Position numbers and translations under genes: made by a program. A stretch of DNA of 64,000 nt, from NCBI RefSeq assembly GCF_044324875.1, contig NZ_CP172185.1, one strand, 5' to 3'. A model generated the notes under the pieces. The model did not search any database. It was not told the origin of the DNA and saw only the letters and a program-made list of their open reading frames with translations. This DNA comes from Escherichia coli (lineage in GTDB: Bacteria; Pseudomonadota; Gammaproteobacteria; Enterobacterales; Enterobacteriaceae). This document shows, in pieces, positions 8,345-57,396 of this stretch (positions are counted from its first letter, which is position 1; every line of letters starts with the position of its first letter).

Positions 8345-9285
8345 TCCACGGTTCAGGCCTGTGGGCATGATAAGACGCGTCAGCGTCGCATCAGGCATCT
8401 GCGCACGGTGTCGGATGCGGCGCGAGCGCCTTATCTGACCTACGGTTCAGACCTGTAGGCATGATAAGAGGCACCAGCGTCGCATCAGGCATCTGCGCAC
8501 GGTGTCGGATGCGGCGCGAGCGCCTTATCCGACCTACGGTTCAGGCCTGTAGGCATGATAAGACGCGCCAGCGTCGTATCAGGCATCTGCGCACGGTGTC
8601 GGATGCGGCGCGAGCGCCTTATCCGACCTACGGTTCAGGCCTGTAGGCATGATAAGACGCACCAGCGTCGCATCAGGCATCTGCGCACGGTGTCGGATGC
8701 GGCGCGAGCGCCTTATCCGACCTACGGTTCAGACCTGTAGGCATGATAAGACGCGCCAGCGTCGCATCAGGCATCTGCGCATGGTGTCGGATGCGGCGCG
8801 AGCGCCTTATCCGACCTACGGTTCAGGCCTGTAGGCATGATAAGACGCACCAGCGTCGCATCAGGCATCGGCGCACGGTGTCGGATGCGGCGCGAGCGCC
8901 TTATCCGACCTACGGTTCAGGCCTGTAGGCATGATAAGACGCGCCAGCGTCGTATCAGGCATCTGCGCACGGTGTCGGATGCGGCGCGAGCGCCTTATCC
9001 GACCTACGGTTCAGACCTGTAGGCATGATAAGACGCGCCAGCGTCGCATCAGGCATCGGCGCACGGTGTCGGATGCGGCGCGAGCGCCTTATCCGACCTA
9101 CGGTTCAGGCCTGTAGGCATGATAAGACGCGTCAGCGTCGCATCAGGCATCGGCGCACGGTGTCGGATGCGGCGCGAGCGCCTTATCCGACCTACGGTTC
9201 AGGCCTGTAGGCATGATAAGACGCGTCAGCGTCGCATCAGGCATCGGCGCACGGTGTCGGATGCGCCACACGACGCATCCGACAA
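8345..9285. repeat. Tandem BIME array, about 10 copies of a 94-bp unit, each with two inverted REP palindromes
   Basis: Unit atgataagacgc(g/a)(c/t)cagcgtcgcatcaggcat...tgtcggatgcggcgcgagcgccttatccgacctacggttcag(g/a)cctgtaggc recurs every 94 bp from about 8367 to 9213. Confidence 0.88.
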
Positions 9286-13870: not shown

Positions 13871-13910
13871 ATTGTCCTCGTCATTGTTATCATTTGTAGG
13901 GTCGAGATTG

Positions 13911-14376
13911 TTGTCGGATGCGACGCTATGCGTCTTATCCGACCTACAGTTCAGTTCACCCCGCAGGCCTGATAAGCCGCGTCAGCGTCGCATCAGGCAT
14001 CGGTTGTCGGATGCGACGCCATGCGTCTTATCCGACCTACAGTTCAGTTCACCCCGTAGGCCTGATAAGTCGCGTCAGCGGCGCATCAGGCATCGGTTGT
14101 CGGATGCGACGCCATACGTCTTATCCGACCTACAGTTCAGCACGCCCCGTAGGCCTGATAAGCCGCGTCAGCGGCGCATCAGGCATCGGTTGTCGGATGC
14201 GACGCTATGCGTCTTATCCGACCTACAGTTCAGTTCACCCCGTAGGCCTGATAAGCCGCGTCAGCGGCGCATCAGGCATCGGTTGTCGGATGCGACGCTA
14301 TGCGTCTTATCCGACCTACAGTTCAGTTCATCCCGTAGGCCTGATAAGCCGCGTCAGCGGCGCATCAGGCATCGGT
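13911..14376. repeat. Tandem BIME array, about 5 copies of a 93-bp unit, in prpB-prpC spacer
   Basis: ttgtcggatgcgacgc(t/c)atgcgtcttatccgacctacagttcag...ggcctgataagccgcgtcagcg(t/g)cgcatcaggcatcgg repeated. Confidence 0.85.
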
Positions 14377-14402
14377 TGTCGAATACAACCAACGGGCGTT
14401 TT

Positions 14403-28160: not shown

Positions 28161-28175
28161 GGTAATGACTCCAAC

Positions 28176-28679
28176 TTATTGATAGTGTTTTATGTTCAGA
28201 TAATGCCCGATGACTTTGTCATGCAGCTCCACCGATTTTGAGAACGACAGCGACTTCCGTCCCAGCCGTGCCAGGTGCTGCCTCAGATTCAGGTTATGCC
28301 GCTCAATTCGCTGCGTATATCGCTTGCTGATTACGTGCAGCTTTCCCTTCAGGCGGGATTCATACAGTGGCCAGCCATCCGTCATCCATATCACCACGTC
28401 AAAGGGTGACAGCAGGCTCATAAGACGCCCCAGCGTCGCCATAGTGCGTTCACCGAATACGTGCGCAACAACCGTCTTCCGGAGCCTGTCATACGCGTAA
28501 AACAGCCAGCGCTGGCGCGATTTAGCCCCGACATAGCCCCACTGTTCGTCCATTTCCGCGCAGACGATGACGTCACTGCCCGGCTGTATGCGCGAGGTTA
28601 CCGACTGCGGCCTGAGTTTTTTAAGTGACGTAAAATCGTGTTGAGGCCAACGCCCATAATGCGGGCAGTTGCCCGGCAT
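28176..28679 (-). CDS. insB: IS1 InsB reading frame (expressed as InsAB' by -1 frameshift)
   Basis: Recognised InsB sequence. Confidence 0.9.
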
Positions 28680-28873
28680 CCAACGCCATTCATGGCCATA
28701 TCAATGATTTTCTGGTGCGTACCGGGTTGAGAAGCGGTGTAAGTGAACTGCAGTTGCCATGTTTTACGGCAGTGAGAGCAGAGATAGCGCTGATGTCCGG
28801 CGGTGCTTTTGCCGTTACGCACCACCCCGTCAGTAGCTGAACAGGAGGGACAGCTGATAGAAACAGAAGCCAC
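28598..28873 (-). CDS. insA: IS1 InsA, 91 aa, GTG start
   Basis: Recognised InsA ([42 protein letters not shown]...). Confidence 0.93.
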
Positions 28874-28928
28874 TGGAGCACCTCAAAAACACCATCATAC
28901 ACTAAATCAGTAAGTTGGCAGCATCACC

Positions 28929-50024: not shown

Positions 50025-50945
50025 ATGAAAACTGTTTCGATAAAACATACTTACTGGGATATAGCTGCTGATATCTATTTCCCTGACGATTTTAATAGTG
50101 AAAAAAAGTATCCTGCCATTATCAGCGCCCATCCAATTGGAAGCTGCAAAGAACAGACATCGGGTAGTGTGTATGGTGCCGCCCTGGCAAAAGCTGGCTT
50201 TATCGTCATTGCTTTTGATGCCAGTTTTCAGGGAAGCAGCGGTGGAGAACCGCGTTATCTGGAAGATCCAACAATGCGAGTAAAAGACTTCAGCATTGTC
50301 GTTGATTACCTTACCACCTTACCTTACGTTGATGCCGGGCGTATTGGTGTACTGGGTATTTGTGGTGGAGGTGGATATGCCATTAATGCCGCAATGACAG
50401 AACGTCGAATTAAAGCTATTGGTACTGTCACGGGTGCAAACTACGGGCGTCTTATGCGTGAGGGATTTACAGCGTTTAATCCTATCGGAGCACTCGAAGC
50501 GATGGCGCAACAAAGAACAGACGAAGCTAACGGCGCAAAACTTCGCGTAGATGATTTACTCCCCTCTTCTCCGGATGCAGCTCTTGAAGCGGGATTAACA
50601 GAAATAGACCTTTTTGAAGCCACAGAATATTATCGTTCGCCACGAGGCTGTGCACCTAATGGGGTAAATCGTTCGCTATTCTCACATCAGACTGTTGCCG
50701 TGGGTTGGGATGCATTTCATCTTGCAGAAGTCCTGTTAACTCAACCAATAATGGTTGTGGTGGGCGATAGAGTGGGCGCATTTGGTGCCTACCGTGACGG
50801 CTGCGAAATTATTGGCCGCGCTGCCTCAAAACATAAAGAGCTGGTCGTGGTTGAAGGTTATTCACATTACGACCTGTATGATAAGCCAGAACCTGTGAAA
50901 CAGGCACTCGAAAAATTAATTCCTTTTTATAAAACACATTTGTAA
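50025..50945 (+). CDS. alpha/beta hydrolase (dienelactone-hydrolase-like), 306 aa
   Basis: GICGGGG nucleophile-elbow-like motif. Confidence 0.8.
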   Translation: MKTVSIKHTYWDIAADIYFPDDFNSEKKYPAIISAHPIGSCKEQTSGSVYGAALAKAGFIVIAFDASFQGSSGGEPRYLEDPTMRVKDFSIVVDYLTTLPYVDAGRIGVLGICGGGGYAINAAMTERRIKAIGTVTGANYGRLMREGFTAFNPIGALEAMAQQRTDEANGAKLRVDDLLPSSPDAALEAGLTEIDLFEATEYYRSPRGCAPNGVNRSLFSHQTVAVGWDAFHLAEVLLTQPIMVVVGDRVGAFGAYRDGCEIIGRAASKHKELVVVEGYSHYDLYDKPEPVKQALEKLIPFYKTHL

Positions 50946-51117
50946 TAATCTTACAGGGAGATTCCTTATCTCCCTGACATTTATCCTTTATTGACTACAC
51001 AACAATAATAAAATTACTCAAAAAGAATTCTATTAAAGGAAAAAAGCATCAAAAAGTAGCAACTCAACTTATTAAGATTATACGCATTAAAATCAGATAA
51101 ACATTTGAGGTATTGTT

Positions 51118-52260
51118 ATGACAAATAAACACCCATCATTGTTTTCTCCTTTTATGCTGACAGAAAAAATAAAGCTACGTAATCGTATCGTTATGGCCCC
51201 TATGACGACCTGGTCAGCGAATCCTGATGGAACCATCTCTGAGCAAGAACTCGAATTTTATAAACGCCGCTCACAAAATGTTGGTTTAGTAATAACAGGA
51301 TGTACCTATGTCACGCCAAGCGGCATTGGGTTTACTCATGAATTTGCCGCGTATGACGACCGTTTCATTAACAGCCTTGAAAAGTTAGCAGCGGCAGCCA
51401 AAAGTGGCGGTGCTCCGGCTATTTTGCAGATTTTCCACGCCGGTAATAAAGCCATCCCGGAGCTTGTACCAAATAACGATGTTATTAGTGCCAGCGCATC
51501 AAGCGTAAAATCTGGTGACTTTATGAAGAGAGTGGTACAAAGCAGGGAAATGACTGAAAACGAAATTCAGGAAACCATTAGAGCATTCGGAGATGTCACA
51601 AAAAGGGCGATTAAAGCAGGTTTTGATGGCATTGAACTTCATGGTGCGCACGGATTCCTTCTACAGAATTTCTTCTCCCCTCTATTTAACCAGCGTAATG
51701 ACCGATGGGGAGGAGATCTCGAAAGACGTATGCGATTCCCGCTGGCCGTATTACAGGAAGTAAAAAATGTAGTCTATGAATATGCGACAAAGCCCTTTGC
51801 CATCGGTTACAGAATATCTCCTGAAGAATCTGCAACAGGGGGGCTGCGGATAGAGGATACTTATAAACTCCTTGATCGGCTCATTGCATCCGGTATTTCG
51901 TATATACATACCTCGCTGGTCAGTATTAACGATAGCTACCCTGTTGAGTCGCCAAATGGCCCCCGAACTATTGAATTGATTTTAAATCATATTGCAGGCA
52001 GAGTGCCGGTAATCGCTGCAGGTAAAATACGCACACCGTCTCAGGCTCAAGAAGCAATTTCCACTGGCCTGCCACTTGTTGCGATCGGTAAAGGGCTGGT
52101 GATAAATCCAGAATGGGTGACTTTAGCTGAATCAGGTAGAAGCCATGAAATTCAAACAACCCTTAATCCACAACTTGTTCCTGAATTAACCATTCCGGAT
52201 AAACTATGGGATCAAATTCAGGCATCGAAAGGAACTGGCTGGTTTCCGTTAATGGATTAA
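51118..52260 (+). CDS. Old-Yellow-Enzyme family NADH:flavin oxidoreductase, 380 aa
   Basis: OYE TIM-barrel signatures (HGAHGFLL, RxGGD). Confidence 0.85.
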   Translation: MTNKHPSLFSPFMLTEKIKLRNRIVMAPMTTWSANPDGTISEQELEFYKRRSQNVGLVITGCTYVTPSGIGFTHEFAAYDDRFINSLEKLAAAAKSGGAPAILQIFHAGNKAIPELVPNNDVISASASSVKSGDFMKRVVQSREMTENEIQETIRAFGDVTKRAIKAGFDGIELHGAHGFLLQNFFSPLFNQRNDRWGGDLERRMRFPLAVLQEVKNVVYEYATKPFAIGYRISPEESATGGLRIEDTYKLLDRLIASGISYIHTSLVSINDSYPVESPNGPRTIELILNHIAGRVPVIAAGKIRTPSQAQEAISTGLPLVAIGKGLVINPEWVTLAESGRSHEIQTTLNPQLVPELTIPDKLWDQIQASKGTGWFPLMD

Positions 52261-52689
52261 ATATCTATTACTCTCCCGAGTGTAAAACTATCAAACCAAT
52301 GAGTAACCGATACAGCCTCGCAAATTCTTTCAGATAATTAACCCGTCACTGCGGCACGTTCTCTCATAAGGCGTGCCTGCTGTGTAATCCAGTATGGATC
52401 CAGCATAGTTGACGGCTTAATAGACTCAATTCCTTTCCCAGGTTACCAACAACGATATCTTGTATAACACCCCAGAAGATACGACATTATGATGAGATGA
52501 GGTATGCTCCTCAGCGCCAATCAACGCCAGGGCTGGGCCAGTTTTGAGATCAGACTCATTCCCGGACTGACTTCAGGCGACATATATCAATGACGTTGGG
52601 GCAATAAAAGATAGCCGATGTAATACATCTATTCAAATTTGTGATACATGTCAAAAAATTGGTTGACCAAACTCGTTATTTATATAAGG

Positions 52690-52714
52690 GCACTTACGAA
52701 GTGCACTCTTTTTT
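52690..52714 (+). terminator. short hairpin gcactt-acg-aagtgc followed by T6, immediately upstream of ykgR
   Basis: Seen in sequence. Confidence 0.4.
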
Positions 52715-52731
52715 AAAGCGAGGAAGTACCA

Positions 52732-52833
52732 ATGAAAGAGAATAAAGTACAACAAATCAGTCATAAACTGATTAATATCGTTGTTTTTGTCGCAATTGTA
52801 GAATACGCCTATTTATTTCTCCATTTCTATTAA
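52732..52833 (+). CDS. ykgR: small hydrophobic protein, 33 aa (MKENKVQQISHKLINIVVFVAIVEYAYLFLHFY), ykgR-like
   Basis: Own translation; GAGGAAG RBS 7 bp upstream; below the ORF-track size cutoff. Confidence 0.5.
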   Translation: MKENKVQQISHKLINIVVFVAIVEYAYLFLHFY

Positions 52834-53162
52834 TAACGGCAATAAACTGTTCACTTCAGTGATATTAAAAAATATGCATCCTCTCCCTTTTTTGTAAGTA
52901 ATTATTATATCCGTGGGAGAGGAATACACGCTGTCCGGCAATCAATCAAACTGCGATAAATCATCGGCCAGTAAAATGGAGATAGCCTCCATTCTCGAAA
53001 AATTCATACTCTCAGCGAAACCATCACTCATCAAGGCGTTTATGGGAGCGTCGCCAATGGCTGCTAACAATGCCAGACTTCCCCGTTGCCGAAATTCCAC
53101 ATACCACAAATGGTCACAGGGATTGGGTGTTGAAATGATCCGGATGAGCATGTATCTTTATG

Positions 53163-53180
53163 GTTATGTTATAACATAAC
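53163..53180 (+). promoter_or_regulatory. Zur box: perfect 18-bp palindrome GTTATGTTATAACATAAC upstream of ykgM
   Basis: Palindrome seen in sequence 12 bp upstream of ykgM start; ykgM-ykgO are known Zur-repressed paralogs. Confidence 0.75.
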
Positions 53181-53191
53181 AGGTAAAAATG

Positions 53192-53455
53192 ATGAAGCCC
53201 AATATCCATCCTGAGTATCGTACTGTGGTGTTCCACGACACCAGTGTTGATGAGTACTTTAAAATCGGCTCGACTATCAAAACAGACCGTGAGATTGAGC
53301 TGGATGGCGTAACGTATCCGTACGTGACAATTGATGTCTCTTCTAAATCGCACCCGTTCTATACAGGGAAGCTGAGAACAGTGGCATCAGAAGGAAATGT
53401 TGCACGATTCACCCAACGTTTTGGTCGTTTTGTTAGCACGAAAAAGGGGGCATGA
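53192..53455 (+). CDS. ykgM: zinc-independent ribosomal protein L31 paralog, 87 aa
   Basis: Recognised L31 type B sequence ([18 protein letters not shown]...). Confidence 0.9.
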
Positions 53456-53595
53456 TGAAAGTCCTTAACTCTCTGCGTACCGCAAAAGAACGCCATCCAG
53501 ACTGTCAGATTGTGAAGCGAAAAGGACGGCTATATGTGATTTGTAAATCTAATCCACGTTTTAAGGCCGTTCAGGGTCGTAAGAAAAAACGTTGA
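53455..53595 (+). CDS. ykgO: ribosomal protein L36 paralog, 46 aa ([46 protein letters not shown])
   Basis: Own translation; start overlaps ykgM stop (ATGA); below ORF-track cutoff. Confidence 0.85.
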
Positions 53596-53645
53596 TTCAA
53601 AATTCGACGAATTAACGATATTTGTCTGATTAATAATCAGACCGG

Positions 53646-53684
53646 ATTAATGTTGGTGTATTTATTACACCAGCATTAATTTTC
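53646..53684 (+). terminator. rho-independent terminator after ykgMO (attaatgttggtgta / tacaccagcattaat, then TTT)
   Basis: 15-bp stem with one mismatch, followed by T-run. Confidence 0.6.
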
Positions 53685-54172
53685 CTGAGGATGTATCTTC
53701 CTGTTCATTTAAGGTCAACTGCCTGACGTTTCTCTCCGAATATTCCATTATATTAATGTTGACTTGTTGACCAGGTGCGCCCTGTATGCTGGCATCAACT
53801 CTCTTTTAGACTGAACACGCCACTCAGTTTCCTCCCTTTGCGACGCAGCCTGCATTTACACTCAAACGGTTAAGATGATAAATGTGGTAAATCTGTTGGT
53901 ACTGACATAAAAACGTTTACGCCACAGGAACGGCCTGATCCACCGGTAACCCCATCGCCGACGTTCGAGTGCCAGTTAGAGTAACGCGCACAGATGACTG
54001 AATGCAGTGCCCTGGCAAAGAGGCCATCGTTCCTGTGACAACTGGCAGTCTTCGTTTAACTTCACTTAATTTGGCTCTTAGGGGGCTTACCGGACAGATG
54101 ACGTACTTACACCTGTTTAATTTTTCATCACTTATTGGGATGAACACCCATAACCATGGTAATGACTCCAAC

Positions 54173-54676
54173 TTATTGATAGTGTTTTATGTTCAGATAA
54201 TGCCCGATGACTTTGTCATGCAGCTCCACCGATTTTGAGAACGACAGCGACTTCCGTCCCAGCCGTGCCAGGTGCTGCCTCAGATTCAGGTTATGCCGCT
54301 CAATTCGCTGCGTATATCGCTTGCTGATTACGTGCAGCTTTCCCTTCAGGCGGGATTCATACAGTGGCCAGCCATCCGTCATCCATATCACCACGTCAAA
54401 GGGTGACAGCAGGCTCATAAGACGCCCCAGCGTCGCCATAGTGCGTTCACCGAATACGTGCGCAACAACCGTCTTCCGGAGCCTGTCATACGCGTAAAAC
54501 AGCCAGCGCTGGCGCGATTTAGCCCCGACATAGCCCCACTGTTCGTCCATTTCCGCGCAGACGATGACGTCACTGCCCGGCTGTATGCGCGAGGTTACCG
54601 ACTGCGGCCTGAGTTTTTTAAGTGACGTAAAATCGTGTTGAGGCCAACGCCCATAATGCGGGCAGTTGCCCGGCAT
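54173..54676 (-). CDS. insB: IS1 InsB reading frame
   Basis: Identical to first copy. Confidence 0.9.
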
Positions 54677-54870
54677 CCAACGCCATTCATGGCCATATCA
54701 ATGATTTTCTGGTGCGTACCGGGTTGAGAAGCGGTGTAAGTGAACTGCAGTTGCCATGTTTTACGGCAGTGAGAGCAGAGATAGCGCTGATGTCCGGCGG
54801 TGCTTTTGCCGTTACGCACCACCCCGTCAGTAGCTGAACAGGAGGGACAGCTGATAGAAACAGAAGCCAC
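54595..54870 (-). CDS. insA: IS1 InsA
   Basis: Identical to first copy. Confidence 0.93.
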
Positions 54871-55396
54871 TGGAGCACCTCAAAAACACCATCATACACT
54901 AAATCAGTAAGTTGGCAGCATCACCCATGAACACCCATAACCATTTTGTGCGGCATGTTAATCCATTAAAACACCTTACTGATTGGCAAATCATCTTTAA
55001 TTATGACTCATGATAGTTTTATATTCTATTTATTATCATTTAAACTTGTTTTTTTACTAGTCCATTACACAACACATTAAGACTATTCCTAACACCTCAG
55101 GGCAAAGTTCCTGGCTAATATAAAATGCAAGTAAGAATTGAACGTTATATTGCCAATAACCTTATGAAACTGAATGTCTTTTTCTTCTTATCAAAAAAGC
55201 AATATTTTCATTTTTTGTAAATATTGACTTAACCATGGAATTCCTTTTCTGTTCACATATTGACACTCATCAGGAAAAAAACATAAATTTAAACCTAATC
55301 GAAATAATTAAAACTTAATCTCGTTTAACCTATATTGATATGTGCTACGTATCTTATTTACTTCCGATTTACTAAAGAAACTGAATGTACCTGTAA

Positions 55397-56008
<612 letters not shown>

Positions 56009-56082
56009 ACTCCAGGCAAGTTAGTTTTAAAAAATGACTCACAGGGACATCACGTCCTCAATTCAACTCGGGAAGAAAAGCA

Positions 56083-56670
56083 ATGAAAAAAAAGGTTCTG
56101 GCAATAGCTCTGGTAACGGTGTTTACCGGCATGGGTGTGGCGCAGGCTGCTGACGTAACAGCTCAGGCTGTAGCGACCTGGTCAGCAACAGCCAAAAAAG
56201 ACACCACCAGTAAGCTGGTTGTGACGCCACTCGGTAGCCTGGCGTTCCAGTATGCCGAAGGCATTAAAGGTTTTAACTCACAGAAAGGTCTATTTGACGT
56301 AGCTATCGAGGGTGACTCAACGGCTACCGCCTTTAAACTGACCTCACGTCTTATCACCAACACCTTAACCCAGTTGGATACCTCAGGTTCCACACTGAAT
56401 GTGGGCGTGGATTATAACGGCGCGGCAGTCGAAAAAACTGGCGATACCGTGATGATCGATACCGCCAACGGCGTACTGGGCGGCAACCTTAGCCCACTGG
56501 CTAACGGTTACAATGCCAGCAATCGTACCACCGCACAGGATGGTTTCACTTTCTCCATCATCAGCGGCACCACCAATGGTACCACCGCAGTAACCGATTA
56601 CAGCACTCTACCGGAAGGCATCTGGAGCGGCGACGTTAGCGTACAGTTCGACGCGACCTGGACCAGTTAA
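56083..56670 (+). CDS. ecpA: E. coli common pilus major pilin, 195 aa
   Basis: Signal peptide; recognised as EcpA/MatB. Confidence 0.93.
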
Positions 56671-56685
56671 TCTCTCTGATGTACC

Positions 56686-56706
56686 AGCAGGGGTAGCCCC
56701 CCTGCT
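56686..56706 (+). terminator. GC-rich stem-loop (agcagggg / cccctgct) after ecpA, candidate intra-operon attenuator
   Basis: Seen in sequence; weak T-tract. Confidence 0.4.
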
Positions 56707-56727
56707 TTATTCCTGGACGGAATTGTT

Positions 56728-57396
56728 ATGAAAAAGCACCTTCTGCCTCTCGCTCTGCTGTTTTCCGGAATATCTCCGGCCCAGGCGCTGGATGTCGGCG
56801 ATATATCATCGTTTATGAACAGTGACAGCAGCACGCTGAGCAAAACGATCAAAAACAGTACCGACAGTGGTCGCCTTATCAATATCCGTCTCGAACGGCT
56901 CTCTTCACCGCTTGACGACGGGCAGGTTATCTCAATGGACAAGCCGGATGAGTTGCTACTCACTCCCGCCAGCTTGCTGCTACCCGCCCAAGCCAGCGAA
57001 GTGATCCGCTTCTTCTATAAGGGACCCGCAGATGAAAAAGAGCGCTACTACCGCATTGTCTGGTTTGATCAGGCCCTCAGTGATGCGCAGCGCGATAATG
57101 CCAACCGTAGCGCTGTGGCCACTGCTTCCGCCCGCATCGGCACCATTCTGGTCGTCGCCCCTCGCCAGGCGAACTACCACTTTCAGTACGCCAACGGCTC
57201 CCTGACAAATACAGGAAATGCGACGCTGCGGATCCTCGCCTACGGCCCCTGCCTGAAAGCCGCCAATGGTAAGGAGTGTAAAGAGAATTACTACCTGATG
57301 CCGGGCAAGTCGCGTCGTTTTACCCGCGTGGACACGGCGGATAACAAAGGACGGGTTGCACTTTGGCAGGGTGATAAGTTCATTCCCGTGAAATAG
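56728..57396 (+). CDS. ecpB: pilus chaperone, 222 aa
   Basis: Recognised as EcpB. Confidence 0.9.

Follow-up and report, generated by a model that had tools for sequence, protein, structure and literature searches.

Background

IS1 is described as duplicating 8 or 9 bp of its target DNA (PMC12903888, PMC12065110), in agreement with the figure of about 9 bp from which the sequence-only reading of the present locus had started. One data set contains IS1 duplications of 8-10 bp (PMC3031569, which cites Iida and Hiestand-Nauer 1986 for a duplication of 10 bp), and in a large trapping study 78% of the duplications were of 9 bp and 22% of 8 bp, with rare cases of 7, 11 and 23 bp (Sheng et al. 2023, PMC10359306, main text and Table S7). 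A long IS1 duplication is rare, yet it has precedent; a length of 18-19 bp does not appear among the IS1 duplication lengths given in PMC10359306 and PMC3031569. According to the text of PMC10359306, the accompanying survey of natural genomes searched only for repeats of 8 and 9 bp, and it would therefore have missed the element presented here.

The insertion described below resembles the non-canonical duplications of these two papers in leaving the range of 8-9 bp, and one of the recorded cases is longer than 18 bp. The events reported there were trapped on plasmids in the laboratory, and the passages of PMC10359306 and PMC3031569 that give duplication lengths mention no extra nucleotide at the junction, unlike the IS1 analysed here.

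Results and discussion

Anatomy of the IS1 element

The 64-kb window (the whole stretch of E. coli DNA that was analysed) carries a complete IS1 of 768 bp at positions 54158-54925, its bounds being set by the terminal repeats. The element is of the IS1A type and lies on the minus strand, with its transposase genes pointing leftward, away from ecpR. The imperfect terminal inverted repeats of IS1 are both present as exact matches: IRR (GGTAATGACTCCAACTTATTGAT) occupies 54158-54180 on the plus strand and begins GGTAATGACTCC at 54158, and IRL (GGTGATGCTGCCAACTTACTGAT) occupies 54903-54925 on the minus strand, where the plus strand reads ...GGCAGCATCACC up to 54925, and forms the end that faces ecpR. 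Two overlapping minus-strand frames from the list of open reading frames, insA (91 aa; 54595-54870) and insB' (167 aa; 54173-54676), fill the interior, and inspection of the sequence places the frameshift motif AAAAAAC (A6C; GTTTTTT on the plus strand) near 54613-54619. The length of 768 bp, the exact IRL and IRR, and the overlapping insA and insB' with their motif for a programmed -1 frameshift are all those of the IS1 family; the target duplication of 8-9 bp, which is typical of the family but not strictly defining, is not found, the flanks carrying instead a repeat of 18 bp (plus one), or of 19 bp with one mismatch. The window contains another IS1 at 28161-28928, in the same orientation and with 0 mismatches over the 768 positions, and five mismatches separate the 54158-54925 element from one in the genome A1.S1.126 that is annotated as 'IS1-like element IS1A family transposase, programmed frameshift'.

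The flanking repeat

The left target copy, ATGAACACCCATAACCAT at 54140-54157 on the plus strand, adjoins the IRR directly, and the right copy, identical and on the same strand, lies at 54927-54944, one base (C 54926) beyond the IRL end. A search of the window thus returned both copies where the sequence-only reading had placed them, directly left of IS1 and again one base past its right end. The 18-mer occurs exactly twice in the 64-kb window, with no third copy at up to 2 mismatches and 0.01 chance matches expected, and the placement of both copies against the two ends of IS1 is far beyond chance. The 9 bp that flank the element are CATAACCAT on one side and CATGAACAC on the other; as these differ, no canonical target duplication is nested within an older repeat.

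The right copy is offset from the IRL by a single base, and the repeat can be described in either of two ways: as 18 bp with a surplus nucleotide next to the IRL, or as 19 bp, beginning at G 54139 on the left, with copies that would differ at their first base (G 54139, C 54926). The latter description abuts both ends of the element, but at the price of the G/C mismatch.

The spacer in other E. coli genomes

The locus was compared with the uninterrupted spacer of other strains, as the sequence-only reading had proposed, using the spacer with the IS removed (1,013 bp) as query and 5,426 complete E. coli genomes as target. The ykgO-ecpR spacer was found in 4,958 of the 5,426 genomes at a coverage of at least 80%; among the matches listed, the typical length was 994 bp, i.e., 19 bp less than the 1,013-bp query. 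Twenty loci (L001-L020), including O157:H7, K-12, B2-type and other backgrounds, were read, and every one of them contains a single copy of the 18-mer, 19 being uninterrupted and one independently interrupted by IS1. The site takes the form ttattgg[G/A/C] ATGAAC.CC..TAACCAT tttgtg in these loci. The 37-nt double-copy junction (18-mer, C, 18-mer) had no match at a coverage of at least 80% in the 5,426 complete genomes, among which no two-copy empty site was therefore seen. The 18-mer varies at four positions across E. coli, and the spacer as a whole is highly polymorphic.

The nearest relative with an empty site, XJ6.1, is near-isogenic with the window in this region: to the left of IS1, 6,026 bp align with 6 mismatches and no gap, and to its right the first ~1.5 kb contain 1 mismatch. 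The single 18 bp of XJ6.1 (L016, 21495-21512) aligns to either flank of the element.

The sequence-only reading had offered two accounts of the repeat: either the target duplication was unusually long, or IS1 had entered a local repeat that was already there. The single-copy empty sites favour the former, and a pre-existing repeat is rejected on the 20 single-copy loci together with the search of the 5,426 genomes for the double-copy junction. Single-copy empty sites, the absence of any double-copy genome from this set and the lack of a nested target duplication together indicate that the 18-bp duplication arose with the insertion. We therefore consider the locus to be best explained by a single transposition of IS1 into a single-copy target, with the 18-19-bp duplication and the junction C as its by-products, and assign this explanation a probability of roughly 0.75. 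Against it count the imperfect join at the IRL, with its added or mismatched C, a length that is missing from those given in the two papers above, and junctions that come from one assembly.

A more restricted form of the pre-existing repeat would have IS1 entering a local tandem duplication carried only by an immediate ancestor outside the sampled genomes. The spacer does gain small tandem duplications, as in the strain AH20K059, which has one of 36 bp about 300 bp downstream; still, none of the 5,426 genomes has two copies, the near-isogenic XJ6.1 has one, and an IS1 that landed between repeat units should have added its own duplication of 8-9 bp, which is not present. We regard such an ancestor as highly improbable.

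The insertion was not found in any other genome: there was no match at 99% or more among the 5,426 complete E. coli genomes, no record was found for the ORFs that span the IS1 junction, the exact left junction was absent from the species-representative genomes searched, and the exact right junction was absent from the metagenome contigs searched. Taken with the identity of the two repeat copies and of the two IS1 copies, this points to a recent and private event.

An independent IS1 in the same spacer

The interrupted locus among the 20 belongs to A1.S1.126 (NZ_CP146588.1; L002, 2051-2818). There, another IS1 has entered the ykgO-ecpR spacer independently, 33 bp beyond the 18-mer on the downstream side and oppositely oriented, and has left a canonical duplication of 9 bp, AAAACACCT. 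The two insertions are alike in the length of 768 bp, the terminal repeats, the AT-rich spacer, and a direct repeat that derives from a single-copy target; they differ in that both copies of the 9-bp repeat abut the IS in A1.S1.126, whereas the element in the window has 18 bp and an extra or mismatched base at its IRL.

That IS1 has entered this spacer on at least two occasions is relevant to a scheme in which two canonical IS1 insertions of the same orientation, with targets offset by 9-10 bp, occurred on sister chromosomes or in two strains, and a crossover within IS1 then brought two abutting 9-bp duplications together. The length fits, 18 being exactly 2 x 9, and IS1 has been recombinogenic in this genome, its other copy sitting at the junction of an 11.3-kb deletion. 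The scheme requires three rare events where one is enough, however, and it leaves C 54926 unexplained; neither of the presumed parental insertions was found in the 5,426 complete E. coli genomes, and the ~1.5 kb on either side resemble XJ6.1 to the same degree, with no sign that two lineages meet at the IS. We judge it very unlikely. A recombination boundary at IS1 that would join two lineages was considered separately and rejected, as the divergence from XJ6.1 climbs only from ~56,400, inside ecpA/ecpB.

The extra nucleotide at the IRL junction

The single C at 54926 (plus strand) lies between the IRL end and the right copy and is missing in the empty site of XJ6.1, which has no such base between the G run and ATGAAC. 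The base equivalent to 54139 is tri-allelic, with G in most genomes, A in K-12 and B2-type genomes, and C in 8 genomes, all from one lineage; these eight have the native site ttattggC ATGAAC and match 19 bp (CATGAACACCCATAACCAT) of the junction query. Because this base is hypervariable, both the 18 + 1 and the 19-bp description are possible.

Two outside sources of the C were examined and rejected. Import of DNA from the lineage with the C allele is contradicted by a further difference of that lineage (gttaaCcc), 17 bp rightward of the repeat, at which the window agrees with XJ6.1, and the IS1 at 28161-28928 has A, not C, as the flanking base on its IRL side. A later random substitution at precisely the junction base is unlikely, with odds that we estimate at about 1 in 2,000 across the flanks and IS compared. 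Since the C stands exactly at the junction, and hardly anything else has changed in the flanks or the IS, we favour an origin in the insertion itself over a later mutation. Candidate origins would be a cut placed one nucleotide beyond the IRL, slippage at the join within the C run, or a gap-repair error at the last position.

C 54926 lengthens a run of C residues (CACC|C), and a sequencing or slippage indel in the CCC run is a possible source of it. An assembly prone to homopolymer errors in general is not supported, there being 0 gaps in 6 kb against XJ6.1, yet an error of this kind is possible for this single base.

On a larger scale, the arrangement might be an artefact of sequencing or assembly, in which a true 9-bp duplication was augmented by bases from the joining of contigs across the repeated IS1, or in which only the C is wrong and a clean 18 bp would be left. 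Repeats such as IS1 are classic sites of mis-joins, the two copies in the window are identical at all 768 positions, as the consensus of a collapsed repeat would be, the C extends a homopolymer run, and the junctions are known from one assembly, with no match in the representative genomes or metagenome contigs. The sequence is nevertheless not prone to indels relative to XJ6.1 (no gap over 6,026 bp and a single one over 9,074 bp), and both IS1 copies have exact ends and a length of exactly 768 bp. That a mis-join should reproduce the exact 18-bp target in the right orientation and at the right end is not to be expected, and 18-19 bp appears to be unlike the usual overlap lengths of assemblers. 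An artefact is, in our assessment, decidedly unlikely.

A possible mechanism

In the single transposition that we favour, the target, present in one copy before the insertion, would have lain at the upstream margin of the AT-rich regulatory region of ecp. The two strand-transfer cuts would have been made about 18-19 bp apart, rather than the usual 8-9 bp, as judged from the length of the repeat, and repair of the two single-stranded gaps would then have duplicated the intervening 18-19 bp. The C at the IRL could have been carried along or added as an extra nucleotide at that end (18 bp + 1); alternatively, a stagger of 19 bp may have been followed by alteration of the junction-proximal base during gap repair, giving G on the left and C on the right.

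The excess of ~10 bp over the usual 8-9 bp is close to one helical turn, and the target borders a tract whose GC content is 25-33%. One may speculate that the same face of the helix was attacked one turn further along DNA that was bent or coated with protein. In its strongest form, this idea would make 18-19 bp not a random imprecision but a discrete alternative geometry of the IS1 transpososome: on AT-rich DNA that is bent or coated with H-NS/IHF, an additional helical turn would separate the strand transfers (8-9 + ~10.5 bp), and the G/C difference would reflect events at the IRL junction, for instance a cut one nucleotide beyond the end or the capture of target DNA with a mismatch. The reported 23-bp IS1 case does not fit neatly with the helical-turn idea, and a discrete geometry of this kind seems to us unlikely. 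If it were true, the lengths of IS1 duplications in a genome-wide survey should form a secondary peak at about 18-20 bp.

Position relative to the ecp regulatory region

The insertion lies between ykgO (type B ribosomal protein L36; 53452-53595, plus strand), which ends 562 bp to the left of IS1, and ecpR (matA; 55418-56008, plus strand). The latter gene is intact, with a GTG start at 55418 and a RefSeq-annotated ATG start at 55466, and encodes an EcpR that matches a very common version of the protein at every residue. A TTCCT-N17-TTCCT motif, which probably represents the EcpR binding boxes, is intact at 55086-55112 (plus strand), 161 bp downstream of the end of IS1 and at -211 to -185 from the predicted transcription start. 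A promoter scan predicted the ecp promoter TTGACA-18-TAAATT at 55260-55289 on the plus strand, which puts the start site near 55297 and leaves 121 bp from there to the GTG at 55418; a published ecpR primer begins at the GTG equivalent to 55418 (PMC4103759), which is consistent with this placement. The end of IS1 at 54925 is thus ~372 bp upstream of the predicted start site (cf. PMC10038029), and the same scan found no promoter-like site at the IS1 end directed outward towards ecpR. The sequence-only reading had located the insertion in the ecpR promoter region, which is borne out as far as the ykgO-ecpR intergenic region is concerned and is too strong for the promoter proper: the core promoter, the TTCCT motif and ecpR are all undisrupted by IS1, and the predicted start lies downstream by the distance given above.

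An IS1 or IS5 upstream of an operon silenced by H-NS can activate it, as in bgl. The present insertion is similar to those events: it borders an AT-rich tract, and the promoter of an operon repressed by H-NS follows several hundred bp downstream. It differs from them in that the predicted ecp promoter and the TTCCT motif are untouched. H-NS is reported to repress ecp (PMC5651002), and an effect of IS1 on ecp through changed H-NS silencing is conceivable.

A separate variant of the same region occurs in AH20K059 (NZ_CP196270.1), in which a perfect 36-bp tandem duplication, ATATTGACTTAACCATGGAATTCATTTTCTGTTCAC (L005, 1295-1330; about 55225-55260 in the coordinates of the window), lies directly upstream of the predicted ecp -35 region and overlaps it; judging from its position, it could alter ecp expression in that strain.

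Other features of the window

The IS1 at 28161-28928 has no flanking duplication (...AAACAGGGT|IS1|AGAGATTTACC...) and stands at the junction of a deletion: compared with XJ6.1, the window lacks 11,259 bp that begin inside yahE and end inside ykgH, and the lost DNA includes yahD, yahC, yahB, pdeL and betTIBA. From its sequence, this junction looks like the product of an IS1-mediated adjacent deletion. An IS21-family element of 2.6 kb at ~45493-48131, which encodes an IstA transposase and an IstB helper ATPase on the minus strand, lies inside a gene for a LysR-family regulator; it is missing in XJ6.1, of which ~6 bp align on both sides of the element.

Two tandem arrays are found in intergenic regions, one between codB and prpE (8348-9265; 94-bp unit, 9.8 copies, 96% matches) and the other between prpC and prpB (13910-14381; 93-bp unit, 5.1 copies, 96% matches), and the units of both look like REP/BIME-type palindromic elements. 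The divergence from XJ6.1 is ~0.1% over 48132-56400 and ~1.3-2% from ~56400-56850 to the end of the window, which suggests a boundary of homologous recombination inside ecpA/ecpB, unrelated to IS1.

Conclusions

The IS1 at 54158-54925 is a genuine insertion with a non-canonical duplication of 18-19 bp and one odd base at a junction, an unusual instance of a known element and of its known variability and not a new system. Its value is mainly that of a caution and a small data point, and it leaves what is known of IS1 or of ECP unchanged. The caution concerns pipelines that demand flanking repeats of 8 or 9 bp, which would call this genuine insertion duplication-less. In the natural allele that the insertion has created, the ecp promoter is set apart from the far-upstream portion of the spacer between ykgO and ecpR, and this allele could serve to probe the role of upstream DNA in the H-NS silencing of the common pilus operon.
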